Origin: an uncultured Dehalococcoidia bacterium | GTDB taxonomy: Bacteria; Chloroflexota; Dehalococcoidia; Lucifugimonadales; GCA-2712585 | DNA: 64,000 nt | NCBI GenBank assembly: GCA_958295715.1 | Contig: OY282371.1 | Span: 1,471,697-1,535,696 of the forward strand | Direction: 5' to 3' | Shown here: piece after piece, positions 5,820 through 63,695 of the stretch | Numbering within the stretch: the stretch's first letter is position 1 | Layout: each line of letters opens with the position of its first letter | Program-made: the position numbers and the translations under genes | Notes under the pieces: model-generated | Databases searched by the model: none | The model's input: only the letters and a program-made list of their open reading frames with translations | What the model was told of the DNA's origin: nothing

Positions 5820-7226
5820 ATGACCAACCAAGAATCGCGGCAGGCGGATCTCCTCATAGAGGGTGGAATCGTCATCACCATGGACGATGAGCGGCGCGTC
5901 CACGACCCCGGCTTCGTGGCCGTCAGCCAGGGCAAGATAGCGGGCGTCGGGAGCGGAGTCCCTCACGGCTGGACGGCCGGGGAGCGGATGGACGCTTCCA
6001 ACATGATAGTCATGCCCGGCGTCGTCAACGCCCACGACCACCTGGACCAGTCCCTCTACCGCAGCTGCCTCGACCGCAGGGACGACTCGCGGGACAAGCT
6101 GCTTCAGATGGCCCGCGGCCTCACCCGCGAGCGCGCCCGGACCGCAGCGTCCCTCACCCTGCTGGAACTGCTGCGCTACGGGGTCACCACCACCCAGGAG
6201 AACCACTGGACCCACTACCACCCCGACTCCACCGACGGGATATGCGAGGCCGTCCAGCAGTCGGGGATGCGCGCCGTGGTGTCCAGGGGAATCAGCGACG
6301 AACCCCGCTACACCCCCACCGACTTTGTGGAGCGGACCCAGGACGTTCTTGACGACTTGGACAGGTTGGAGCGGGAATACGACTCTGACCGCATTATCAT
6401 CACCTCCGAGCCGACGACCATCGTCAGGTGCAAGCCGGAGACCGTCGTGGCCATGCGCGACTGGGCGTTGAAGCGAAACAAGATGTGGCACATTCACCTG
6501 GCCCAGACCCGCGACGAGTTGGCCGAGGCCATGGAGAAGGTGGGCATGGGCAGCGTTCAGTACGCCCAACGCCTGGGCGTTCTGGGGCCTGAGATGCTGG
6601 CCGTCCATTGCAGCGGCCTCCTAGATGAGGAGGTGGAGCTTCTGGGTGGATATCAGGTCCGGGTCGCTCACTGCCCGCTAACGGTCATGCGCGGGGGCAA
6701 CACGGTTCCACCCATCTGGGAACTTGAGCGGCTGGGCGCGCTGGTGGCCGTGGGCACCGACGGCTCTGCCACCAACAACGGCCAAAACCCGTGGGAGGCC
6801 ATGAAGATGGCCGTGTACATGCAGCGGGTGCGCTTTCAAGACCGCCACTTGGGAACGGCGGAAATGGCCTTGGAGTTGGCCACCGTCAAGGCCGCCGCCG
6901 CCCTGGACCTGGGCCACCGGGTGGGGTCGCTGGAGGTGGGGAAGGAGGCCGACGTGGCCATGTTCCGGAGGAACCAGCCCCACCTGCTCCCCGGCGCCCG
7001 GCTCATAAACAACCTGGTCTACTCCGGCCTGAACAACATGGCCGACACGGTCCTGGTGGGCGGGAAGGCCCTCCTGCGCGACGGGATAAGCGTCACGATT
7101 GACGAGGACGAGGTGGCCGCCAAGGCCCGCGAGCATCAGAGGGCCATGATTAAGGAGGCCCACCTGGAGGGGGACATCGCCCTCAGCCCCTCCTGGCCGC
7201 GCCGCCCCACCTCCCCAACGCCCTAA
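5820..7226 (+). CDS. Amidohydrolase (chlorohydrolase/aminohydrolase-type metal-dependent hydrolase)
   Basis: HxH metal motif in MPGVVNAHDHL. Later HIH and GTDG motifs fit the amidohydrolase_1 layout. GGAGG upstream. Confidence 0.8.
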   Translation: MTNQESRQADLLIEGGIVITMDDERRVHDPGFVAVSQGKIAGVGSGVPHGWTAGERMDASNMIVMPGVVNAHDHLDQSLYRSCLDRRDDSRDKLLQMARGLTRERARTAASLTLLELLRYGVTTTQENHWTHYHPDSTDGICEAVQQSGMRAVVSRGISDEPRYTPTDFVERTQDVLDDLDRLEREYDSDRIIITSEPTTIVRCKPETVVAMRDWALKRNKMWHIHLAQTRDELAEAMEKVGMGSVQYAQRLGVLGPEMLAVHCSGLLDEEVELLGGYQVRVAHCPLTVMRGGNTVPPIWELERLGALVAVGTDGSATNNGQNPWEAMKMAVYMQRVRFQDRHLGTAEMALELATVKAAAALDLGHRVGSLEVGKEADVAMFRRNQPHLLPGARLINNLVYSGLNNMADTVLVGGKALLRDGISVTIDEDEVAAKAREHQRAMIKEAHLEGDIALSPSWPRRPTSPTP

Positions 7227-52855: not shown

Positions 52856-54805
52856 CTACTCCGTGTAGGGGAATTCGACCTCCCAGAGCCGGTCCTCCCC
52901 AGGAACGTACTGGCCGGTCCTGACGCGGATGACGTCGTACTCCGGGAGGGCCATCGTTATCATGCACCTCCCGTCGAACATCACGCTGCGCCGGTCGTCA
53001 TAATCGAAATCCAGATTGTCATAGCCGTACTGCCGGCGATGGTCGGCGAGGTCATTCACGTCGGCGGGTATCAGATGCAGAAAGAACAGCGCCTCCGTGT
53101 CGGCGGGGCTGCACGGCTGCTTCACGTAGCTCAGCGTGTTTTCCCTGAGATATAGGTCAAAGACAGAGCGGGCCGCCGGTTGTCCGGATACCAGGGCCTC
53201 ATATGCGGCCTCCCACGACGCGTCCCTGTCAAAGGCCCTGTTGACTTTGAATATGACGCCGTCGGACAGCTCCGCCACCGGCTCCAGGCCCGGCAGGTCC
53301 CATATGCTGTAATCGAACTTCCACCTAAAGGAATAGAGCCAGACCACAAGCGCGCCCTCCGCCGCCTCTTCTAGCTTCCGTTTCGCTCCGGTCACGTGGG
53401 TGGACAGATAATCGTCGTCACGGCCGGCGAAGATGTATACGACGGATGAGCCGCTCAGCACGGGAACGTCAACCGGCGTTTCCCGGACGTACTGCAAGAC
53501 TTCCGAGCCGGCCCAGACGGGACCCTCAATTCCTATGCCCTGTTCATTTGCCCGGACGATTTCACGCGCGTTGAGGGCCGCGCCGTTAGCCAGCCAGAGA
53601 GAGGAGGCCAGGACGATGACCAGGACCAGCAAGTTATACGGCTCTATCCCTTCCCGTGCTACAGTTCTAATGATTGGCAGTTCGACAACGGATGCCGGCC
53701 ATGGGCGTCCTCGCGCGTAGCTCAGGAACCTGTCCAGGGCAAGGACCGCCGCGAACAGCAACGGGATGTACATGGGGGACAGATACCTGCCGCCCAGGGG
53801 CATGATTTCGGTGCGCCACTGGGCCGCCGTGAGGAAAATGAGGTAGGCCAGGGCAAAGCCGCCGAACAGGTAAAAGGGACTCCACCCATCCGCGCCCTCC
53901 CCCTTCCGACGCGCGCGAAGGAACGAGAACCCGACGGCCGCCGCCAGCGTCAGCAGCGCCACGGCGGCGAATACCGCGCCGGCGGTCCAGGCGTCCTCCG
54001 ACGGCGGGTTCAAGAATACCCACCCGGCCAAGTGGCTGAAGTACTTGTCCAGAATTTCCAACAAGCCAAAGGGCGATGGAACTCTGTGACCGTGGATTAC
54101 GCCATGGACAAGGAACATCTGCGCAAGCCATAGTCCCACCGGCGCCGTGGCTATCAGCAGATACAGTCCAACGCGCCTCACCTTTTCCAACGGCGCGGGG
54201 CCGCGCTGCAAGAGCAGCAGGGGCGCGACGGCTATTAGCAAGGTTACCCCCATGTAGCGAGTAAGGATGGCCAGGGAAGCGAAGGCCGCCGCCCAAATCA
54301 GGTCCGAGCGCTTGGCGGTATTGAGGAACTTGGAGGTCTTGACCAGTGAAAGCGTTACGAACAGGATGAAGGGCGCCTCGGCTATGGCGATGGACGCGAC
54401 GCCGGTCAGGGGCAGGGCCAGCATGATGGCCAGGCAGGCCCCGACCACCAGCGGAGGGCGCTGAACGTGTCGCCGCAGCCCTTGGCCGGCAACGTATATG
54501 GTGAGCCCGAAGACGAGGGCGTTGAACGGGCCGGCGACGTGGTAAGGGTCGAGGAACCCAAGGCTGGCCGCGGCCAACAGCATGGGATAGAGAGGCGGCC
54601 AGTGGAGATAGGGCCATTGGTAAATCTGAACGAACCACTGGCCATCCAGCAGGTTCCGGGCCGTGGATACGTAGGTGGCCCAATCCCCGGTCAGCCCCAC
54701 GCCGTAGGCGGCCTCCCGCGCCAGGATGAGGGCCGCGCCCAGGATGGCGATGGCGGCCAGCAGCAGGTCGAACCGGCCTGGGCGAATTGCAGATGGCAGG
54801 TTTAT
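52856..54805 (-). CDS. GT-C-fold membrane glycosyltransferase (ArnT/PMT-like) with a C-terminal soluble domain; start uncertain
   Basis: A multi-TM N-terminal half, with an acidic first loop (GLTGDWATY...ARNLLDG) like the GT39/GT83 families. The track GTG start (54700) removes a plausible first TM helix (RPGRFDLLLAAIAILGAALILA). That frame is open back only to a TAG, and the only candidate starts are ATA 54805 (GGGGAG 8 nt upstream), CTG 54796 and ATT 54784. Confidence 0.6.
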   Translation of the reverse strand: MNLPSAIRPGRFDLLLAAIAILGAALILAREAAYGVGLTGDWATYVSTARNLLDGQWFVQIYQWPYLHWPPLYPMLLAAASLGFLDPYHVAGPFNALVFGLTIYVAGQGLRRHVQRPPLVVGACLAIMLALPLTGVASIAIAEAPFILFVTLSLVKTSKFLNTAKRSDLIWAAAFASLAILTRYMGVTLLIAVAPLLLLQRGPAPLEKVRRVGLYLLIATAPVGLWLAQMFLVHGVIHGHRVPSPFGLLEILDKYFSHLAGWVFLNPPSEDAWTAGAVFAAVALLTLAAAVGFSFLRARRKGEGADGWSPFYLFGGFALAYLIFLTAAQWRTEIMPLGGRYLSPMYIPLLFAAVLALDRFLSYARGRPWPASVVELPIIRTVAREGIEPYNLLVLVIVLASSLWLANGAALNAREIVRANEQGIGIEGPVWAGSEVLQYVRETPVDVPVLSGSSVVYIFAGRDDDYLSTHVTGAKRKLEEAAEGALVVWLYSFRWKFDYSIWDLPGLEPVAELSDGVIFKVNRAFDRDASWEAAYEALVSGQPAARSVFDLYLRENTLSYVKQPCSPADTEALFFLHLIPADVNDLADHRRQYGYDNLDFDYDDRRSVMFDGRCMITMALPEYDVIRVRTGQYVPGEDRLWEVEFPYTE

Positions 54806-54994: not shown

Positions 54995-55103
54995 GGCGCG
55001 GGCCTAACCATGAGCCCCCTCCTGGGATCCGCCCTCTGGACAGCCGCCGACGTAGTGGCCGGGTTCAACTTCCTCTGGATGTCGCGCAGCAAAAACACCT
55101 GAG
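54995..55103 (+). repeat. 109-bp direct repeat, copy 2 (truncated paralogue of the small membrane ORF)
   Basis: See 52696-52804. It could encode a 30-aa remnant from the ATG at 55010 (MSPLLGSALWTAADVVAGFNFLWMSRSKNT). Confidence 0.9.
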
Positions 55104-55205
55104 CGCCGATGCGCGTTCAGACCGGCTCCCTTCCATGCGGATTTCCCGAATCTGTAGTAAGCTAAGCCGCGATTACAAATCCTATTTCGTTGAGAAGGGT
55201 GTCTG

Positions 55206-56117
55206 ATGGTTAGATATTGGGCGATAGCCCCCGCCGATTACGGCAATCGCGAGAGGTTTGAACAGTGCTGGCAGTATGACCGGGCCAACGGCATTATGGC
55301 CATCGGCTGGGACGTGGGAGCCCCCTCCTCCAGGGATGACCTGGAAGCCAAATACGCGGAGGTTGCTCATAACGCGAAGTATGCCCATAAAGAAAGTTGG
55401 ACGCGGCACGGGCTGAACATGCTAATGAAGTTCTGGTTTGACATCCAACCAGGAGACCGCATCATCGCGAGGGCCGGGACGAAGAGGCTGGTCGGAGTCG
55501 GCACGGTCCAGGGAGCCCCCTACTACGCCTCCAGTAAAGGGTCCACTTGGGGACGCAACTTCCTGCCGGTGTCGTGGGATGACATCAAGAAACGAGAGTT
55601 TCCCAACGTAGTCTTCGGGAGGCATACGGTCAGCGAGCTTCAGGAGGACAGGTTCTTGGCACTGACCGGCGAGACCGACGTGGTTCCCGCCGAGCCGGAC
55701 ATCCAACTCCAGACCGAGTTTGCGATGGAGAAGCCTTTAGAGGAGTTCATCGTATCCAACTTCAGCGCGGTGTTCGGGGCCGACTTCCAACTCTATAAGG
55801 ACGATGAGGGAAGCTACGGTCGACAGTATCGCACGGACGTCGGCATTATAGATATACTAGCTTGGGAGCCGGCGACAAGTTCCTACGTGGTGATGGAGCT
55901 AAAAAGGGGCAGGCTTGTCGATGAGGCGGTGGGGCAAGTCCTGCGCTACATGGGGTGGGTTAAGGAGCACCTGTGCCGGCAGGGGGAAGGTGTGCGGGGC
56001 ATTATTATCGGCCGCGACCGGGACGATAGGTTGGACTACGCCCTCAGCATGGTGGAAAATGTCGAAGCGCGGTTTTACCGCGTTGACTTTCAGCTAAGCC
56101 CCCGCCCCTGGGCCTGA
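55206..56117 (+). CDS. Two-domain nuclease: N-terminal PUA/EVE-like domain (tentative) plus C-terminal NucS/PD-(D/E)xK-like endonuclease domain
   Basis: C-terminus: GRQYRTDVGIIDILAWEP...YVVMELKRGRLVDEAVGQVLRYMGWV, which is the D...E-x-K...Q pattern of NucS-type PD-(D/E)xK nucleases. The N-terminus, YWAIAP...GIMAIGW...GDRIIARAG.KRLVGVGTV, resembles small beta-barrel reader domains. This is a by-eye call. Confidence 0.6.
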   Translation: MVRYWAIAPADYGNRERFEQCWQYDRANGIMAIGWDVGAPSSRDDLEAKYAEVAHNAKYAHKESWTRHGLNMLMKFWFDIQPGDRIIARAGTKRLVGVGTVQGAPYYASSKGSTWGRNFLPVSWDDIKKREFPNVVFGRHTVSELQEDRFLALTGETDVVPAEPDIQLQTEFAMEKPLEEFIVSNFSAVFGADFQLYKDDEGSYGRQYRTDVGIIDILAWEPATSSYVVMELKRGRLVDEAVGQVLRYMGWVKEHLCRQGEGVRGIIIGRDRDDRLDYALSMVENVEARFYRVDFQLSPRPWA

Positions 56118-56156
56118 CGGCGTGATGGACGGCTGGGCGGCGGGGCGGCGGGGCTG

Positions 56157-56411
56157 TCATTCTCTCAGTTCTAGGCTTCGAGCGAGGTGATACAGAGCCG
56201 GACTACTGCTGACTCGCACGAAGAGTTCCGTATTGCCACCTGAGTTGCCGACTCGATGCTTAGGAAGAAAGTTCCCACCCCAGCTAATACCAAGCGCGGC
56301 ATTCACGCATTGCGGGCTGAAGGGCTCTTCAAGCTCTCCGTCGCGCACGGCATCTCGAATCCGCCGGATGGTTCTTCCTTCACGCATAAAGCCAGCCTTG
56401 AGACGTCTCAT
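56157..56411 (-). CDS. Hypothetical small protein (last gene of the minus-strand operon)
   Basis: 84-aa ORF, 70 nt downstream of the DprA-like gene. No family recognised. Confidence 0.35.
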   Translation of the reverse strand: MRRLKAGFMREGRTIRRIRDAVRDGELEEPFSPQCVNAALGISWGGNFLPKHRVGNSGGNTELFVRVSSSPALYHLARSLELRE

Positions 56412-56481
56412 TATAGACCATAGCCATCTGAAGCGTCAGCCTCCTATTATCTTCAATGGAGCCTCTCTCACATATGCCTAG

Positions 56482-57099
56482 TTATGGAGGTATCGCCCCC
56501 ACCCCCACGACCGCCGCGCCGAGGCCCACCAGGTTGGCGTTGGCGGCGCTGGGCAGGGTCAGGAGGGGTTTGCCGGCGGACGCCAGTTTGCGGGCGAAGG
56601 CTTCGGTCTTGCCGCCGGGGGCGGCGTGGGCGATGAATACCCGCTTCGCCAGGGCCGCCACCAGGTCGTTGCGCTGGGACGCGAGCCGCGCCGTCGGACG
56701 GCGGACCGCCTCGGGGAAGGGCGACAGGACCAGCATCCTGCCGTCTTCCAGAGGGCCGCGCCAGTCGCGGGGGACGCGCATCTTCTGGATGCCCCGCGCC
56801 GGGCAGACGACCACAGGCTGGCTTCCTCGGAGCAGCAGGCGCAGGCATTCCCTCTCCATCGGCGTTTGAAACCCGCCAATAACGGGCGCCCCGGCGTCGC
56901 GCATGGCCCTGGCCAGGTCGTAGGTCTTGAGGATGAGGTCGCCGGGGCAGCGGTTGGAGCAGAAGAGGGCGGTTAGCGGCCCTTCAAGCAAGCGCAAGGG
57001 TCCTTGATGAGCCATCTCTGGTGCCAGCAAGGCTGCGGACTGCCTACTTGCATCGACGGCCCCGGTTTCATGCGCTAGGCTCAACATTGCCGTGTGCTC
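56482..57099 (-). CDS. DprA/Smf-like Rossmannoid (SLOG superfamily) protein lacking the other DprA domains
   Basis: ALFCSNRCPGDLILKTYDLARAMRDAGAPVIGGFQTPMERECL...LVLSPF...SQRNDLVAALA...FIAHAAPGGKTE follows the DprA core pattern (G-G...E...RN...A). The ATG at 57099 avoids a 49-nt overlap with the upstream gene. Confidence 0.55.
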   Translation of the reverse strand, partial: EHTAMLSLAHETGAVDASRQSAALLAPEMAHQGPLRLLEGPLTALFCSNRCPGDLILKTYDLARAMRDAGAPVIGGFQTPMERECLRLLLRGSQPVVVCPARGIQKMRVPRDWRGPLEDGRMLVLSPFPEAVRRPTARLASQRNDLVAALAKRVFIAHAAPGGKTEAFARKLASAGKPLLTLPSAANANLVGLGAAVVGVGAIPP

Positions 57100-57110
57100 C
57101 ATTGCCTGTC

Positions 57111-57950
57111 TCAGTTCCCTTCGTAGAAGAGCTTGTTGAACTCTGCTTTGGTCTTGCAACGTCTGACCTCGGCGCGCATCTGTCCGAACTGAGTCGACGC
57201 CCCCTTGCGTAGGTTGGATTCTGCCTGCCCTAGGTACTCATCTACATGTCTCGACTGCCCTGTAAAGTCAACGATGGGTTTCTTCACTGCCTCCATCGAG
57301 TGTCCCAATAGGTGAACGAGCATGGTCTTCGGGTCGAGGGGCCCTTGGTAGTCCTTGAACGCATCTATCGCCAGGGACTCCATGTGATATCCCTTGATTT
57401 TTCTGTCCTCGTGGGTAATAAAGCAGTCTGCCAGGGCCTTGGCGAGTTTGATTATCGGTACGACTCTGCCGTTCCTGGCTGTGTTGACCTCGGCTAGCTT
57501 CTCGGCAAAGTCATCAGGTCGAGCTACGTTGCTCCACTGGGCGCTTCCGGGCTCGGCAATCCGAACGCCGTCAGTCCTTGTCCGTATGGCAGGCAGTAGT
57601 TGAATCTCGGTCCCCTTGGCGTATCTGACTGTCACAGCCAGCTTGCCCGCGCTTACTGTGTTATTCGGAAGCTGTCGCTGGATGGTGTCTCGCACGTACT
57701 TGATGACATCTGAGGGAGACTGGTTGACCAACGAAGACTCATTCACTACCAAAAGGACATCGACGTCGCTGAGGCCGGTCACATAAGTGCCCTTCCGCAC
57801 GGAACCGCCGAACATGGTCTGCACCACGTTGCCTTTCTGTCTGAGAAACCCGCACAGGCTTTCAAGGCGCTGGGTGACAGTCTGAGTATTCTTGCGGGTG
57901 TACTGTGCGAGAAATGCCTCGCAGTGCTCATTGAACCTATCGTCTGGCAC
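57111..57950 (-). CDS. Pol-beta-superfamily nucleotidyltransferase, SMODS/CD-NTase-like (tentative)
   Basis: FGGSVRKGTYVTGLSDVDVLLVV is the GS-x9-D-x-D NTase signature. The following strand-loop, AVTVRYAKGTEIQLLPAI...W..., and the helical C-terminal half resemble second-messenger synthase-type NTases. The position of the third acidic residue is unclear. GTG start 3 nt after the PIN stop. Confidence 0.65.
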   Translation of the reverse strand: MPDDRFNEHCEAFLAQYTRKNTQTVTQRLESLCGFLRQKGNVVQTMFGGSVRKGTYVTGLSDVDVLLVVNESSLVNQSPSDVIKYVRDTIQRQLPNNTVSAGKLAVTVRYAKGTEIQLLPAIRTRTDGVRIAEPGSAQWSNVARPDDFAEKLAEVNTARNGRVVPIIKLAKALADCFITHEDRKIKGYHMESLAIDAFKDYQGPLDPKTMLVHLLGHSMEAVKKPIVDFTGQSRHVDEYLGQAESNLRKGASTQFGQMRAEVRRCKTKAEFNKLFYEGN

Positions 57951-57953
57951 AGA

Positions 57954-58409
57954 TCATGCCTCCGCTTCCGCCTCGATCAGATCATCTAAGACGACGATGG
58001 GCAGGCCCTCGACGCGGCGAAAGTCTGTGTCGTTAGTGATGAAGAGCGTGCAGCCGATGCTAAGGGCCGTCGCGGCGTGAAGCGCGTCGGGGGTCTTCAA
58101 CCCCGTATCGGCGCGGATGCGTGCCGCGTCCTCCCACAGTTCCCGGGTGGCCGGGATTAGACTAACCTCATGCGCATCGAACATCGACCGAAGCAGCATC
58201 TCGACAACCTCATCGCCCTCCCGCAGCGGCTTGACAAGCGTTTCCAGCGCCGTGATGTCGCTGCTCGCAACATCGAACTCACCGGCCCGTGCTTGCTGCC
58301 ACAAGGGTTCAAGCAACGTGCGGTACGGCTCAACACGCTCTACGCTGTATATGAAGCCATTGGCGTCGAGGTAAGCGGGACCGAGCGCAGGTAGGGTCAG
58401 CGATCCCAC
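57954..58409 (-). CDS. PIN-domain ribonuclease (VapC-like toxin)
   Basis: AYLDANGFIY (first Asp), ...E..., TPDALHAATAL and FITNDTDF (last Asp) give the PIN acidic quartet layout. Confidence 0.8.
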   Translation of the reverse strand: MGSLTLPALGPAYLDANGFIYSVERVEPYRTLLEPLWQQARAGEFDVASSDITALETLVKPLREGDEVVEMLLRSMFDAHEVSLIPATRELWEDAARIRADTGLKTPDALHAATALSIGCTLFITNDTDFRRVEGLPIVVLDDLIEAEAEA

Positions 58410-58630
58410 GATGCTCTCTCTTCCTTGATGTAGTCATCGACTTCCTTCCCAGTCGTGAAGAGGCGATGCCCCGGCGCTTCGGCTAGGATGTCGACTACGG
58501 ATCGCCGTTCGGTAGACGAGGAACGCGTCACCACCACGTCGACCGTCTGGCCTGCCTCTAGCTCTGGGCTGGCAACCTCCACCCTGCCGCCTGGTTGAAC
58601 CGTCGTTCTTACGCGCAACGTTTTTTGCAT
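58397..58630 (-). CDS. Putative antitoxin partner of the PIN protein
   Basis: 77 aa, overlapping the PIN gene by 13 nt. The N-terminus, VQPGGRVEVASPELEAGQTVDVVV, resembles the AF2212/DUF104-type or AbrB-like antitoxin strand pattern. Confidence 0.55.
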   Translation of the reverse strand: MQKTLRVRTTVQPGGRVEVASPELEAGQTVDVVVTRSSSTERRSVVDILAEAPGHRLFTTGKEVDDYIKEERASWDR

Positions 58631-58705
58631 TGTCCTAGCCTCCTTTCATGGGGTTGGCGCCAGACATACACCCAATATGCACCAAAGGGCCTAAGGCGGC
58701 AAGGA

Positions 58706-59671
58706 CTAACTAGAAATGTGTTTCGCGTTATGTTCAATTATCCGCTTCTCTGCATCTTCACCCACTTCCACAACCTCAAAGCCAAGCGTGCGCCAATACT
58801 CGCATACTTCTTCAAAATAACCTTCAAGGGGTGGAAAATCCTCATCCAAGAATATCTTCAATATCTCAGCGCCAGCCTTTGTCAAAATGTGTTTACCGAT
58901 TATCAGTTGATCGTCGCCTTCGTTCATTCGTACAGTGGCAATTCGTTGACCACAAATCAGATTAAACTCATCGCCGCTGGAAAGTATGATTTTTACTCCT
59001 TCAGACCGTTCTTGAATCAGGCCCAACTGTTGGAACTCACCAAACGTGTGATAGTCCATGCCTATCTTTTTCGGATCAAATGAGATAAACTCTTTTCCGA
59101 ACACGCCCACACGGGAACCTATAACTACAAAAAAATCCTGCTCCTCCGAATCAGGATCCTGGCTACGCCAAGAGACCGACCGGAGCTTCAGGAACTCCTG
59201 CAAGTCCAGTGGAGTCAGGTCCTGGGCGACTGATACGGTACGCCTGGCTACAGAACCTGGGCGGCTAACATCTCCGTTGAGAATGCGTCCGAGCAGGTCG
59301 CGTAATTCCTCAAAGGAAACGAACTTAGACGCTTCCAATGCAGGACCAATGACAGAGAGATCTTCTTTTAACCGTTTTGTAAATTTCCCCTCGAAATCTC
59401 CCGAATCATCAATTCGCTGAGCCTCATCCAAGACGGCTGCAAGATTATCTTTAACCCCGAAAGTGAATGCTGTCGCCAAGTACCGTGCAGCTTCTCCCGA
59501 CCATCCCAAGCGTTCCTGCCAAAACTGTAAGGAGTATTCGCCACGAGCAAGTTGTCCTTCACCCTCCGCTTTCACCTCCTCCCGGACTCTCCTTTTTGCA
59601 GGAACAAAATGTTTCACTAACCCCAGTAATTTTTCCATTATCGTCCCTATAACCATCAGGGGGTTTATCAT
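58706..59671 (-). CDS. DUF2806-like protein
   Basis: 321 aa and markedly AT-richer. The central block FEELRDLLGRILNGDVSRPGSVARRTVSVAQDLTPLDLQEF resembles the DUF2806 core (W..iLagE...PGsfS.rtl..l..L) as I recall it. Confidence 0.55.
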   Translation of the reverse strand: MINPLMVIGTIMEKLLGLVKHFVPAKRRVREEVKAEGEGQLARGEYSLQFWQERLGWSGEAARYLATAFTFGVKDNLAAVLDEAQRIDDSGDFEGKFTKRLKEDLSVIGPALEASKFVSFEELRDLLGRILNGDVSRPGSVARRTVSVAQDLTPLDLQEFLKLRSVSWRSQDPDSEEQDFFVVIGSRVGVFGKEFISFDPKKIGMDYHTFGEFQQLGLIQERSEGVKIILSSGDEFNLICGQRIATVRMNEGDDQLIIGKHILTKAGAEILKIFLDEDFPPLEGYFEEVCEYWRTLGFEVVEVGEDAEKRIIEHNAKHISS

Positions 59672-59772
59672 CGCTCCCGCCCCATGCGGTACTTGATGTC
59701 GTAGTTGATGATAAAGTCTAGCTCCTTGTCCGTGAAGCCGTAGCGCTCAGGCGGCAACCCTCCCACTACGCG
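59668..59772 (-). pseudogene. Remnant 1 of the C-terminal tail of an RM/BREX-type DNA methyltransferase
   Basis: Encodes ...PPERYGFTDKELDFIINYDIKYRMGRER*, which is the YGLT-EE..FI.NYD.KYR.G tail I associate with type IIG/PglX-like methyltransferases. It has no upstream body. Its TGA overlaps the ATG of the DUF2806-like gene (ATGA). Confidence 0.5.
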
Positions 59773-59997
59773 CTAGTACTCGAAGTGGTACACGTACCAC
59801 TTGGCGATTTCCGCCCCCCGGCCGCCCGGGTGGGCCTCGCATCCAAACCTTCCGGCGTGCCTGTCCTCTTGCAACTGAGCAGACGCCCTATAAAAGTGTG
59901 TGCCCAGTATCAGCCAATTCCGTAAAGACGGATATCTACTTTGCCACTCCCTCCTTCGCTCCTGTGGGTCGGTGGTGATGCCAATGCGACAACCCAT
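59773..59997 (-). CDS. Small hypothetical protein inserted between the two methyltransferase-tail remnants
   Basis: 74 aa. GGAGG lies 5 nt upstream of the ATG and overlaps the stop of remnant 2. IGITTDPQERRREW...WYVYHFEY is only faintly GIY-YIG-like, so I make no family call. Confidence 0.45.
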   Translation of the reverse strand: MGCRIGITTDPQERRREWQSRYPSLRNWLILGTHFYRASAQLQEDRHAGRFGCEAHPGGRGAEIAKWYVYHFEY

Positions 59998-60006
59998 CTA
60001 CGCCTC

Positions 60007-60190
60007 CTATGCTCTCTCCCGCCCTATGCGGTACTTGACGTCGTAGTTGATGATAAAGTCTAGCTCCTCGTCGGTAAAGCCGTAGCGCTTGGCCGGCGCC
60101 CGGTCGATTTCGTCAATGACGGGCTTGGACGGTCGCGGGGCGATATCGGCCCACCTAATTCTTCGTGGGCCACGCCTGGCCGGCGCGCCA
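60007..60190 (-). pseudogene. Remnant 2 of the same methyltransferase C-terminal tail
   Basis: Encodes ...WADIAPRPSKPVIDEIDRAPAKRYGFTDEELDFIINYDVKYRIGRERA*. No intact upstream ORF. It shares a 74-nt direct repeat (60016-60089) with 59674-59747, with 5 mismatches. Confidence 0.5.
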
Positions 60191-60464
60191 TGAGGGTCAA
60201 CCGGCGGTGTGTTAAACTAGGTTACTATTACGAGGACAGCCTATTGAAGCCCCCTAGTTCTGAAACGCGCGCCACAGGCGAGGTCTGACGCCGTGGGTGG
60301 AGTGGCAAGTCTGGCATTGGCCGGCGCGCCGTTGCGGAGATGTTCTGCCGGCGGCGGGGCCGCCGAGCCTGGGCGGGCGGCAGGACAGGCCAAGCCGATA
60401 CGCCCTAAAGAACTTCGGCTGACGCCGGCGGATACGTCCGGCTTGGCCGGCAGGCGGTAAGGGC

Positions 60465-61820
60465 GTGAGACGGCTAATCGCACGGCTGCTCCCGGCCTCC
60501 GACCAGCGCGCGGCGCGGCAGACGTTGTGGATTGGCGCGATAACCGTCGCCCAGCTTCTGGCCAGCATCGTTCAGGTGGCCCTTTCGGCCCGCATCCTGG
60601 GGCCCGAGGGCTTGGGGATTCTGGCCGTCATCATAGCGTTAACCTCGCTTCTCTACCGGTTCGTGTCCCTGCCGGGCAACGAAGTCATTACCACCTTCGT
60701 GACTCGCGGCGTGGCCGAAGGACGCATGAAAGAGGCCACCGGGACCCTGCGGTTCACCTTTATCGTGTCCCAAGGACTTTCCCTGGTCTCCTACGGCCTG
60801 CTGGCGGCCGCCGTCCTCGCCGTGAGCGGCCTGTTCGGAGGCGCGGAGGAGTACAAGTCGACGCTGCTCGTGTACGGAATCGGGGGCGTCGCGGCGGCCA
60901 CGGTCCGGGAAAGCATGGCGTTGCTGCGGCTGGCCGACCGGCTGTGGCTGGGCTTTGCCGTTTCGGTGGTCAGCGCGGCGACGAGGGTAGCCTTTCTTCT
61001 GGCGGCGTGGTCGACCGGGAGTGGGCTGACGGGCGTAGTCTTGGCCTACGTCGCGGGAGACGTGATAACCGGGGTCGGGATGTTCATCGCCGGCGCGTCC
61101 TCGGAGAGGAAAGCGGGGCTGCCGGGGTTCCTGCGCTCGCTGCCGGCCAAAATTCCGGGCCGGGACGTCATCGCGTTCCAGGTTGGGTCCTTCTGGCGGT
61201 CGTCGGTTGAAGCCGTCATCCTGCACATCGACGTAATCCTAATAGCCAACATCGTCAGCCTGAGCCAGGTTGGGCTGTACCGGGCGGCGCACCAGATTAT
61301 CGACGCCACCAAGCACCCCTTCCGCTCCATATCCACGGGAGTGCAGGCCGAGTACAGCCGCCAGTGGTACGGCGGGAACCCGGCCGCCGTTCGCCGGATT
61401 TCCCGCCGTTTTGCGCTACTGTCCCTCGCCGTAGCTGTTGCGGGATACGGGCTGCTTGCTATAATTCACGAGCCGATTATCCGGATTATGCTGGGTCCGA
61501 GCTTCGAAGAGGCCGCCTTACCCTTGCTGTTCCTGCTTCCCGGGGCCTTGGCCTTTGCGGTCATTGCGCCCCTTTACGTGCTGCCCGCCGCCACGGGGAG
61601 GGCCATCCCCCATCTGGCGGCGTCGTTGGCGGCCCTGGCGGTAATGGTCGCAGCGATGTTGGTCCTGGCCCCCAGGTACGGAGCAGAGGGGGCGGCGTGG
61701 GCCAACTCCATTGGCTGGATAGCTTTCGCGGCGGCCTTCGTCCCCTTCATAGTCGCGACGCTGCGCCGGGGTCGCGCCGCCGGCCGGGCAGAGGAACAAG
61801 GCGGGAGGAGCGGGGGTTGA
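60465..61820 (+). CDS. Polysaccharide/oligosaccharide flippase (Wzx-like, MOP superfamily)
   Basis: 451 aa with about 12-14 hydrophobic helices. The N-terminus, LWIGAITVAQLLASIVQVALSARILGPEGLG, is typical of Polysacc_synt proteins. GTG start. Confidence 0.75.
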   Translation: MRRLIARLLPASDQRAARQTLWIGAITVAQLLASIVQVALSARILGPEGLGILAVIIALTSLLYRFVSLPGNEVITTFVTRGVAEGRMKEATGTLRFTFIVSQGLSLVSYGLLAAAVLAVSGLFGGAEEYKSTLLVYGIGGVAAATVRESMALLRLADRLWLGFAVSVVSAATRVAFLLAAWSTGSGLTGVVLAYVAGDVITGVGMFIAGASSERKAGLPGFLRSLPAKIPGRDVIAFQVGSFWRSSVEAVILHIDVILIANIVSLSQVGLYRAAHQIIDATKHPFRSISTGVQAEYSRQWYGGNPAAVRRISRRFALLSLAVAVAGYGLLAIIHEPIIRIMLGPSFEEAALPLLFLLPGALAFAVIAPLYVLPAATGRAIPHLAASLAALAVMVAAMLVLAPRYGAEGAAWANSIGWIAFAAAFVPFIVATLRRGRAAGRAEEQGGRSGG

Positions 61821-61847
61821 GCTTGTCGCAAACCGGCGGGTCTCGGG

Positions 61848-63695
61848 GTGGTTGAAGTCGGCGCGGCTTTGAACAGGGCAGCGAGTTGGAGCGGCTCGGT
61901 CTACTCGACCTTGGCGTCGCTGCCATCCAGGGCTTCCCCGGCAGGCGTGGGCGTCCTGTCCATGTATTGCGCCTCCATTGCCCTTGCCCTGTTCGCCTTC
62001 GGCTACACGATTCGCGGTGGAACGCAGATTTACGGAACCGTAAACCTCACACACGCCCTCCTCCTGGCCACCATCCTATTCGTCGGCATCCACCTCTGGG
62101 CCGCCAAGAGGCTCAGGTACCGGCTCATCTGGGCCGACGTGGTCCTGATTGGATTCGCCCTGGCGATGCTGGCGAATAGCGGCACCATTGCCGGCATTGA
62201 GAAGAGCGTGCGGTTCTTGGGGCTGGTCCTGGCGCCCTACTTCCTGGCCCGCGTCATCCTGGTCGATTTCGTCCGGGTGAAGCTCTTCCTAGCCACGGTA
62301 TTGGCGGTGGCGACGGTTTTGGGACTCGGCGTCGTAGCCTTCTCATTCCTGCCGGAACCGGTCGCCATCCTGCTGCCCTATGCGGTGACTGAGTGGAACC
62401 AGCGCCTGATTTTCCTCGATACCAACCCCGTTCAATTCGGAATGCTCTTGATGGTTGGGGCGATGTTGTACACCGGCTTGACCTCCTCTTGGCGACGCCT
62501 TTGGATGGTTCTGGGCGTGGCCGTCATAGGGGCGCTGCTTTACGACATACTTATCGTCGGCAATCGCGCCTCGTTGGTCGCTGTCTTTGGAGCGTCCTTG
62601 GCCGCCGTCTCCCTCGCCCTCATCACGCGCAAATTCAGAAACTTCCCTATTCTGTTTGCTGTTTTCATCGCGGCGGGCATCCTGTTCTACTCGGTTTTCG
62701 CCGCCGGTTTGTCGCCAACGCCGGCCAGAGGATCCCTCGGCGTCACCTGCCATGACGATGAACAGGCGCGGGTCGTCATCTGCCACGAAGGCAACCAGGC
62801 GCGGGTGGAAAGTCCCTTCGCGGTCTACCTGACGAGCGACAGCGTGCACAAGGCCGACGATTACCCCGTTGTTCCTTGGCGTTGGCAGATGGCCGGTCCC
62901 CGGCTCGACGACGCCACCACGCCCGACGACGCCACCTGGGCCGACATTGACGGCGCCCGGCTTCATAGGCTTCATATATACATCCCCGCCGAAGATGACC
63001 TGGGCAAATTCTTGCGTGTAGATACGAGCTATGAAAAGGAGGGCGAGATTCTCCTGGCGCAGACGACGGCCGTAGGCCCGTTAGCCGAGGCGTCGAGCGG
63101 GTTTAGACTCCCGCGGTTCGGGATAAGGCTGCCCAATCAGGAACGGTTCGAGACCCTGGCCCTGCTGTTTAAGTCTTCAGAAAACTTGACTGAGGAGGAA
63201 TGGCGTCTTCGCCAGGCCACAATAGTTAATAGGTTTGATCTGCTTGAAGAGTCCAGGGACAAATTCGCGGCCAACCCCCTCTTCGGCGCAGGAACCGCGG
63301 GGATGGCCAATTACGCCCACAACATCTTTGCGGAGACGGCGGCCGAGATGGGCCTGATGGGGCTGGCCCTCCTGTTGGCCTTCTTTGCCCTCGCGCTGAG
63401 AAACCTCTGGAAGTTCTTCGTCAAGATGGACCAGCGAAATCCCTACTTCCACGTCATCACGGCGGTGGTCCTGGTCGTCAGCGCGCTTTTCATCCAAAAG
63501 CAGTTCTCCACCGGCTTGACCCACCACAAGGACCTGATTATCTTCGTCGCCATAATACTAAACCTGCCGCTTCTTTTGGGAATGCCGAGCCGGGAGGCCG
63601 GCGGACGCCTCCGCGATAAGCTGCCGCCCAGGCTCCGGTTCCTCATCCCGGCCAAGGGCGCCGCGCCGGCGGACGACGCTGAGAAGCGGCCGTGA
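61848..63695 (+). CDS. O-antigen ligase/polymerase-like (Wzy_C domain) membrane protein with a large extracytoplasmic insert
   Basis: Polytopic. NPLFGAGTAGMANYAHNIFAETAAEMGLMG is the Wzy_C/O-antigen ligase motif. Start is uncertain; the ATG at 61962 is an alternative. Confidence 0.65.
   Translation: MVEVGAALNRAASWSGSVYSTLASLPSRASPAGVGVLSMYCASIALALFAFGYTIRGGTQIYGTVNLTHALLLATILFVGIHLWAAKRLRYRLIWADVVLIGFALAMLANSGTIAGIEKSVRFLGLVLAPYFLARVILVDFVRVKLFLATVLAVATVLGLGVVAFSFLPEPVAILLPYAVTEWNQRLIFLDTNPVQFGMLLMVGAMLYTGLTSSWRRLWMVLGVAVIGALLYDILIVGNRASLVAVFGASLAAVSLALITRKFRNFPILFAVFIAAGILFYSVFAAGLSPTPARGSLGVTCHDDEQARVVICHEGNQARVESPFAVYLTSDSVHKADDYPVVPWRWQMAGPRLDDATTPDDATWADIDGARLHRLHIYIPAEDDLGKFLRVDTSYEKEGEILLAQTTAVGPLAEASSGFRLPRFGIRLPNQERFETLALLFKSSENLTEEEWRLRQATIVNRFDLLEESRDKFAANPLFGAGTAGMANYAHNIFAETAAEMGLMGLALLLAFFALALRNLWKFFVKMDQRNPYFHVITAVVLVVSALFIQKQFSTGLTHHKDLIIFVAIILNLPLLLGMPSREAGGRLRDKLPPRLRFLIPAKGAAPADDAEKRP

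Follow-up and report, generated by a model that had tools for sequence, protein, structure and literature searches.

Toxin modules such as PrrC, ApeA, Abi2 and HEPN proteins are known to be embedded in restriction-modification (R-M) operons as a second line of defence (PMC3710099). In cyclic oligonucleotide-based antiphage signalling systems (CBASS), the cyclase is expected to be adjoined by a Cap effector with a sensing domain. The locus described here has features of both, and lies at positions 56157-58630 of a 64,000-nucleotide (nt) stretch of an uncultured Dehalococcoidia bacterium (assembly GCA_958295715.1, contig OY282371.1, positions 1,471,697 to 1,535,696), hereafter the window. It encodes a VapBC-like toxin-antitoxin (TA) pair, a nucleotidyltransferase (NTase) of the CBASS cyclase type (CD-NTase) and a stand-alone DprA-like protein. 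The locus is probably, though far from certainly, a composite, built on a mostly deleted frame of helicase, methyltransferase (MTase) and DprA-like genes whose cassette slot holds the TA pair and a CBASS cyclase that lacks an effector. It would then consist of three independently distributed defence modules, and not of one PIN-based signalling system.

Five minus-strand open reading frames (ORFs) are confirmed in this region. In the order of reading, they are A (58397-58630; 77 amino acids, aa), which is antitoxin-like; PIN (57954-58409; 151 aa), a predicted VapC-like PIN-domain nuclease; NTase (57111-57950; 279 aa), a predicted CBASS oligonucleotide cyclase of the CD-NTase type and CdnD-like; D (56482-57102; 206 aa), a stand-alone DprA-like protein assigned to the DprA clade of the SLOG superfamily; and E (56157-56411), an ORF of 84 aa. 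The spacings given in the original prediction are borne out by the sequence: A overlaps PIN by 13 nt, the PIN stop is separated from the GTG of NTase by 3 nt, the NTase stop codon from the ATG of D by 8 nt (11 nt with the stop codon counted), and D from E by 70 nt. With an alternative TTG start (ORF 56482-57159), D would overlap NTase by 49 nt; the N-terminus MEHTA is, however, conserved in relatives, which makes the ATG at 57102 the likelier start. Upstream of A, PIN and NTase there are Shine-Dalgarno-like purine runs, and these three genes may well be co-translated from one transcript. E, on the other hand, is probably not a gene, because it has no homologue among 160 related loci, no family match in profile-library scans and no Shine-Dalgarno sequence or other ribosome-binding site (RBS) upstream, its ATG sits within a TATAAT -10-like box, and the G+C content of its third codon positions is 0.52, compared with 0.65-0.83 for A to D. 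Its exact product sequence is also absent from the gene calls of the public collection. Of the compact five-gene operon originally proposed, four genes are retained here, and their order recurs in related loci (see below), while the fifth is not counted.

Several lines of sequence comparison show that the NTase is a bona fide CBASS CD-NTase, that is, a second-messenger synthase of the SMODS/CD-NTase type, as had been proposed, and not a member of the KNT/MNT groups. It scores 226.6 bits with the NCBIfam model NF041117 (CBASS_cyclase_b; cutoff 200), and it matches the PADLOC Cyclase model (2.4e-93) and Pfam SMODS (6.5e-12). The Pol-beta motif, which had been given as GS-x9-DxD, is in fact GS-x11-DxD (G49-S50-x11-D62-x-D64), and G49-S50, D62 and D64 are invariant across the family. 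At the position of the third catalytic acid (hDhhP), an invariant Gln (Q117) is found, with a near-invariant Glu (E115) two residues earlier (residues 111-117, window 57600-57620). The closest solved relative, the defence-active CdnD of type IV CBASS (PDB 9ntn; 5e-54 over residues 12-262), has an identical Gln/Glu arrangement at this site; because of this likeness, Q117 does not seem to argue against activity of the NTase.

The resemblance to type IV CBASS CdnD (9ntn/9nto; bioRxiv 10.1101/2025.04.06.647259) includes a shared E-I-Q-L-L-P-A strand with the Gln at the third-Asp position. In that system the Gly-rich N-terminal extension of CdnD, M(G/S)G(G/S)GG, receives a deazaguanine modification (bioRxiv 10.1101/2025.04.06.647259). 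In contrast, the window NTase starts with MPDDRFNEH and lacks the extension of about 30 residues, its alignment with 9ntn beginning at chain residue 42. Moreover, Cap9 (QueC-like) and Cap10 (TGT-like) are not found among the window genes or the recurrent neighbours in relatives, and no Cap11 is found near the window NTase. Membership in type IV CBASS is ruled out by the lack of Cap9, Cap10 and the Gly-rich N-terminus. With type I CBASS, the locus shares a cyclase that passes the curated model and keeps the GS...DxD residues, and in 17 relatives a TPALS gene directly follows NTase. It differs from type I CBASS in that the window has no effector or receptor gene and that a VapBC-like pair usually stands at the head of the cassette.

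For the assessment of gene content, a scan anchored on the NTase was made with one genome per species, which gave 63 loci (62 usable; loci are designated L and a number), and the window proteins were searched against the ORFs of each locus. All 62 loci are in Chloroflexota genome assemblies, mostly of Dehalococcoidia and a few of Caldilineaceae. A is present in 38 of them, PIN in 33, D in 39, and a further gene, here called X, in 17. More loci have the order A-PIN-NTase-D than any other architecture (21 of 62; 19 intact and two frameshifted). This arrangement is therefore more than chance, and the PIN/antitoxin and NTase/D pairs do co-occur elsewhere, as the original prediction required. The PIN-NTase gap is exactly 3 nt in 14 of the 33 loci with PIN.

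X encodes 280 aa directly after NTase and matches Pfam Cap17-like_N/TPALS (1.5e-35) and the PADLOC CBASS Effector model (4e-49). Its product has a conserved hydrophobic C-terminal helix only, and differs from TPALS/Cap17 effectors in having no PNP or TIR enzymatic domain. By analogy, it would be the kind of receptor expected for a CBASS cyclase (bioRxiv 10.1101/2023.01.24.525353). Where present, X sits between NTase and D. In the window, in contrast, there is no X-like or TPALS-like sequence anywhere, and profile scans of the window proteins place neither A, PIN, D or E nor any of their neighbours in an effector or sensor family. The usual effectors are thus missing from the window, in agreement with the earlier observation, and an adjoining Cap effector with a sensing domain is found in 17 of the 62 relatives but not here.

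If PIN had replaced the missing effector, its presence should be anticorrelated with that of X. The two are, however, independent (9 loci with both, 24 with PIN only, 8 with X only and 21 with neither; p = 1), and PIN should therefore not be taken as a replacement effector. In descriptive terms, PIN is associated with the MTase described below, which is present in 32 of the 62 loci (odds ratio 7, p = 8e-4), and the MTase is in turn associated with D (29 loci with both, 3 with the MTase only, 10 with D only and 20 with neither; odds ratio 19, p = 3.6e-6).

Purifying selection on the cyclase is of similar strength in all contexts, whether or not the TPALS gene is present. The median pairwise dN/dS of NTase is 0.19-0.22 in A-PIN-NTase-D loci without X, 0.17 in loci with X, 0.18 where NTase is solo, and 0.17 where only NTase and D are found, and architectures without X are present in several deep NTase clades. 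Purifying selection in the absence of an adjoining effector implies that the cyclase works with some partner that is usually not encoded beside it. Its product may be read by something encoded elsewhere, or by a partner that has escaped recognition.

A different context of the same CD-NTase family is seen in L064, L065 and L067, where NTase (about 5995-6834) begins 3 nt after the end of a DruA-like gene (Pfam DruA 7e-78), itself preceded by a gene for a protein of about 1560 aa. No TA pair, TPALS gene or DprA-like gene is found at these three loci. In L065, NTase is followed by NA37-like and RelA/SpoT-like genes.

The assignment of PIN rests on its Pfam PIN match (2.2e-18) and on four acidic residues (D15, E56, D108 and D127) that are invariant in 26 homologues; a profile search of the PDB gave no match at E <= 0.01. 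The protein consists of the PIN domain only and has no sensor domain. A has no Pfam family match and no PDB match by profile search, and its single-sequence AlphaFold2 (AF2) model is of low confidence and unusable (predicted local distance difference test score, pLDDT, 57), so that no fold is claimed. Its position, size and overlap with PIN fit an antitoxin, and A is conserved upstream of PIN in 33 loci.

The same pair is also found on its own. In stand-alone modules, a PIN about 72% identical to that of the window is preceded by an A-like gene, with the same 13-nt overlap, between pseudouridine glycosidase-like and SDR genes. Such pairs occur among housekeeping genes, without NTase, in at least 10 assemblies. 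Because of these occurrences, A-PIN is regarded as an autonomous VapBC-like TA family. It shares with VapBC the small upstream gene overlapping a PIN gene with four acidic residues, as well as the autonomy of the pair. It differs in that A matches no known antitoxin family, that the pair often lies 3 nt upstream of a CD-NTase gene inside an R-M frame, and that A is sometimes in tandem. Other PIN homologues are found in decayed frames, with NTase stubs interrupted by insertion sequences (IS).

Some variation is seen at the position of the pair. Two or three tandem copies of A precede a single PIN, or precede NTase without PIN, in L159 (4011-5013) and also in L030, L032 and L066. In L003/L021 (4257-4956 in L003 coordinates) and L062, PIN is replaced by DUF4258 toxin-like and DUF2283 antitoxin-like genes between an A-like gene and NTase, which shows that TA modules are swapped at this position. 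A scan with the PIN alignment found no PIN relatives on viral contigs.

D was predicted to be a stand-alone DprA-like Rossmannoid protein and not an ordinary truncated dprA, and both parts of this claim hold. Its AF2 model (pLDDT 86) is matched best in Foldseek by DprA (3uqz, 4ljk and 5mll; TM 0.66-0.70, E ~1e-10) and ShosA (8zva; TM 0.69), and only weakly by the LOG and MCP (Moco-carrier) folds (TM ~0.5). D also has a partial match to PADLOC PsyrA (9.5e-12). It is well below the curated dprA cutoffs, with 18.6 bits for TIGR00732 (cutoff 191) and 23.6 for Pfam DNA_processg_A (cutoff 29.6), and contains the core fold of about 170 residues only, without an effector domain. The possibility that D is a TPALS paralogue, and thus a sensor SLOG, was considered and rejected, as alignment with the TPALS profile gave an hhalign probability of 2% and no Pfam TPALS match was obtained.

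In H. pylori DprA (HpDprA), R143 and R170 are reported to bind single-stranded DNA (ssDNA; PMC12961424). In the profile alignment these residues correspond to R144 and R171 of D, which are invariant or near-invariant; the third Arg, R52, is one position off R51 of D, under a numbering in which the crystallised construct is taken to begin with residue 5. By analogy with DprA and ShosA, D may bind ssDNA and serve the R-M enzymes. In comparison with ShosA/PsyrA and DprA, D thus has the same Rossmann-like fold (TM 0.67-0.70), Arg residues matching R143/R170 and a defence context. It differs from them in having no SAM or winged-helix domains and in its partners, which are an MTase and a helicase; no PRTase or RecQ-like gene of the ShosTA/PsyrTA kind is found in the window or its relatives.

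The partners of D were identified from the wider distribution of the D family, which comprises 355 clusters at E <= 1e-30. A metagenome scan with an alignment of 18 closer D sequences gave 80 D-anchored loci (L068-L147, e.g. L125, L096, L112 and L145), of which only two contain NTase. D therefore differs from the SLOG sensors (the N-terminal domain of TPALS/Cap17 and the SLOG domain of ThsA) in having no dedicated co-occurrence with a signal synthase. In contrast, 22 of the 25 D-anchored loci with at least 3.5 kb of upstream sequence have an MTase gene upstream on the same strand, and it is because of this difference that the usual partner of D is taken to be the MTase with its helicase, and not the cyclase. 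Some D-like domains are fused to the C-terminus of proteins of about 700 aa, and two of four such proteins that were scanned have weak MTase-family matches. No D relatives were found on viral contigs by a scan with the D alignment, and there is no sign of a phage origin.

The MTase is a type IIG/ISP-like protein of about 1100 aa, with a PADLOC type IIG score of 1223 bits, Eco57I/MmeI methylase domains and a Type_ISP_C domain. Its distance from D is 0-4.7 kb, and in several loci the two ORFs overlap or are about 20-35 nt apart. Farther upstream lies a PLD-SNF2 helicase gene that matches the PADLOC HKD+Snf2 and DrmD models. The frame of the D-anchored loci and of L162-L167 thus consists of the PLD-SNF2 helicase, the MTase and D, with a variable slot between the MTase and D. 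Among the loci whose D is closely related to that of the window, L167, which lies among housekeeping genes, is the bare frame. The slot holds DUF4160/DUF2442 genes in L162-165, and ApeA-HEPN with A-PIN, but without NTase, in L166, where PIN overlaps D. Elsewhere, it contains MNT+HEPN genes, a Schlafen/AlbA_2 protein gene, HSP70-TPR with a UvrD-like helicase gene, A-PIN, or a CD-NTase gene. Base composition was also tried as a marker of frame versus cassette genes, but was dropped: in 39 of 39 loci D exceeds NTase in GC content, but it exceeds the MTase as well.

The frame may be likened to split type ISP or class 1 DISARM-like pairs of helicase and MTase. As in the R-M operons with embedded toxins (PrrC in the EcoprrI type Ic locus, and ApeA and Abi2; PMC3710099), MNT-HEPN, ApeA-HEPN and A-PIN modules are inserted among the genes of the helicase-MTase restriction system in relatives. 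The frame differs from those operons by its DprA-like 3' partner and by the CD-NTase in the slot, and in the window the R-M genes are deleted. No description was found in the literature of CBASS with PIN/VapC, of SMODS with a DprA-like SLOG protein, or of a DprA-like protein with a methyltransferase or SNF2; Burroughs et al. 2015, which lies outside this search, may describe them. Toxins in R-M operons are an established theme, while the CD-NTase in the slot and the DprA-like 3' partner are new elements.

Traces of this frame are present in the window. A tblastn search with full-length MTases of related loci detected two minus-strand remnants upstream of the cluster. The first (60010-60138) corresponds to about the last 40-48 codons of the MTase, with 62-75% identity to residues ~1063-1111, and the second (59666-59755) is 88% identical over 24-25 aa to residues ~1072-1110 and abuts the start of a DUF2806 gene. 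The two overlap a 90-nt direct repeat (59666-59755 and 60008-60097; 88% identity), both copies of which encode the C-terminal end of the MTase. Each remnant is directly followed by a different slot gene. The first is followed by a 74-aa ORF (59773-59997, minus strand) with weak GIY-YIG/T5orf172-like similarity (Pfam T5orf172, E = 0.008), homologues of which lie upstream of A in L032 (3e-30) and L053 (2e-24). The second is followed by the gene for a 321-aa, Abi_alpha-like DUF2806 protein (58706-59671, minus strand; Pfam DUF2806 2.8e-9, Abi_alpha 0.011), which among the related loci matched only L046 (1e-16). The repeat copies have the appearance of marks that recombination at the MTase 3' end left when cassettes were exchanged.

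It appears, then, that the helicase and nearly all of the MTase are gone from the window, and that two 3' stubs and an intact D are left. Taken with the partnership of D and the MTase, the remnants indicate that a restriction-type frame once stood here with D at its 3' end, and that its other genes have been deleted. The region from about 60.1 kb down to D would, on its sequence, be the former slot. In the composite thus envisaged, A-PIN would act as a metal-dependent RNase restrained by the small upstream protein, and the NTase, to judge from its homologues, would respond to infection by synthesising a cyclic oligonucleotide. In the 17 relatives with X, this product would presumably be read by the adjoining TPALS-SLOG protein with its C-terminal hydrophobic helix; in the window the receptor gene is absent, which would leave a cyclase without an effector in cis. 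The cassettes in the slot may serve as a second line of defence beside the R-M system, as do the HEPN toxins in R-M operons.

Several observations weigh against this composite reading. The cyclase, with dN/dS values of 0.17-0.22 whether or not a TPALS gene is present, must work with some partner. D is intact in the window and in about eight other loci without a detectable MTase, and may have an MTase-independent role. A-PIN-NTase-D, the commonest architecture, is spread over three or more deep NTase clades (63-93% identity), and in many loci the PIN-NTase gap is fixed at 3 nt; all of this would also fit a functional unit. Finally, the co-occurrence counts are phylogenetically non-independent, as nearly all loci are from one bacterial class, and should be taken as descriptive.

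Alternatively, the TA pair could be a regulatory or guard module, which leads the transcript, controls the expression or stability of the CD-NTase and fires when a phage shuts off host expression, with PIN not being the receiver of the signal. The conserved block invariably opens with A and begins exactly at the RBS of that gene; A/PIN and PIN/NTase are translationally coupled by the 13-nt overlap and the 3-nt gap; A-PIN-NTase-X also occurs outside the R-M frame (L034, L040 and L041); and two-protein regulators attached to CBASS are known (bioRxiv 10.1101/2022.04.27.489752). However, A has no recognisable DNA-binding domain, and in 29 of the 62 loci NTase is found without the PIN pair under the same selective constraint. 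In an alignment of 17 regions upstream of A, moreover, the RBS alone is conserved and no conserved operator or promoter is seen; autoregulation through an operator upstream of A is thus unsupported by conservation. A guard role of this kind is considered rather unlikely.

It is also conceivable, with a somewhat smaller chance, that the slot is a dedicated docking site whose cassettes (VapBC-like, HEPN-MNT, ApeA, Schlafen-like and effector-less CD-NTase) are coupled in function to the R-M complex or D, as PrrC is to EcoprrI. The CD-NTase would then signal without a classical Cap effector, through PIN, D or the restriction enzymes. If this were true, CBASS would have a new kind of output, and a DprA-like protein a new role.

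The losses in the window raise the question of whether the locus is a decaying, non-functional relic, in which the loss of the MTase, the helicase and the TPALS effector has left the other genes heading to pseudogenisation. The reduction of the MTase to two stubs and the absence of X would agree with this, as would the frameshifted NTases, truncated PINs and IS insertions in related loci (L011, L047, L055, L058 and L158-161). Nevertheless, the four genes A, PIN, NTase and D have their full length in the window, and their products retain all of the family-invariant residues, and the architecture without X is kept across deep divergence with a dN/dS of ~0.19. Decay is thus an improbable explanation.

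The original prediction took NTase and the SLOG protein as the signal module and PIN as the effector. In such an integrated system, the CD-NTase would produce the signal, D (or A) would sense or process it, and PIN would be freed from its antitoxin to kill the cell. The tight packing of the four genes and the recurrence of their order, the lack of any other effector in cis, the purifying selection on NTase without the TPALS gene and the invariance of the PIN catalytic residues are consistent with this scheme, and for ThsA and Cap17 it is established that the SLOG domain senses the signal (PMC11204291; bioRxiv 10.1101/2023.01.24.525353). The distribution of the parts, however, argues against it. 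A-PIN is found by itself in housekeeping surroundings, and in L166 it accompanies D in the absence of NTase. PIN coexists with the TPALS effector in nine loci and is independent of it, and has no sensor domain through which a signal might be received. D is without NTase in 78 of the 80 D-anchored loci, its family is tied to the MTase and helicase, and it has no profile similarity to TPALS; NTase itself is also found solo or behind DruA. PIN as a CBASS effector is therefore not supported, and a single integrated system is very unlikely. The fallback of the original prediction, that a VapBC pair is simply stacked on a two-gene NTase/DprA system, was closer to the truth as regards the stacking, but the base of the stack is not a two-gene system of that kind.

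Least probable is a minimal two-gene CBASS-like system in which D is the receptor or effector of the NTase (for example, through nucleotide-triggered ssDNA binding or RecA interference that halts replication): five loci have NTase-D without A-PIN or X, D begins 8-9 nt after NTase in loci without X and is intact in the window despite the MTase loss, and the DprA-like ShosA acts in defence via ssDNA and RecA (PMC12961424), but the MTase is still upstream in four of those five loci, the D family is overwhelmingly NTase-free, X separates NTase from D when present, and D is a core fold without an effector domain.

With regard to the surroundings, a plus-strand gene (55206-56117) convergent with D and outside the operon encodes a 303-aa PD-(D/E)xK protein that matches the PADLOC candidate family PDC-S02 (7e-47) as well as Pfam YhcG_C and NucS_C. 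The islet from 55100 to 60300 has a GC content of 0.49-0.62 (apart from D), compared with 0.62-0.70 in its flanks. It lies inside a cell-envelope polysaccharide cluster, with a PMT_2-type glycosyltransferase gene (52856-54700) on one side and a Wzx-like flippase gene and a Wzy-like gene (60465-63695) on the other.

Under the composite reading, the locus illustrates that tight packing and conserved gene order need not mean one system, as each piece has its own distribution. In 45 of the 62 loci, the CD-NTase family of the Chloroflexota (mostly Dehalococcoidia) has no recognisable adjoining receptor and yet is maintained by purifying selection. Such orphan cyclases mean either that CBASS cyclases can rely on effectors in trans or that they have an output not yet recognised. 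The DprA-like protein, in turn, is a conserved partner of a helicase and MTase restriction system, and the site between the MTase and D behaves as a hotspot for the swapping of small toxin cassettes, which leaves duplicated MTase 3' ends behind. Should restriction or self-protection prove to require D, R-M systems of this class would gain a further component, and D would provide a handle for finding new cassettes.

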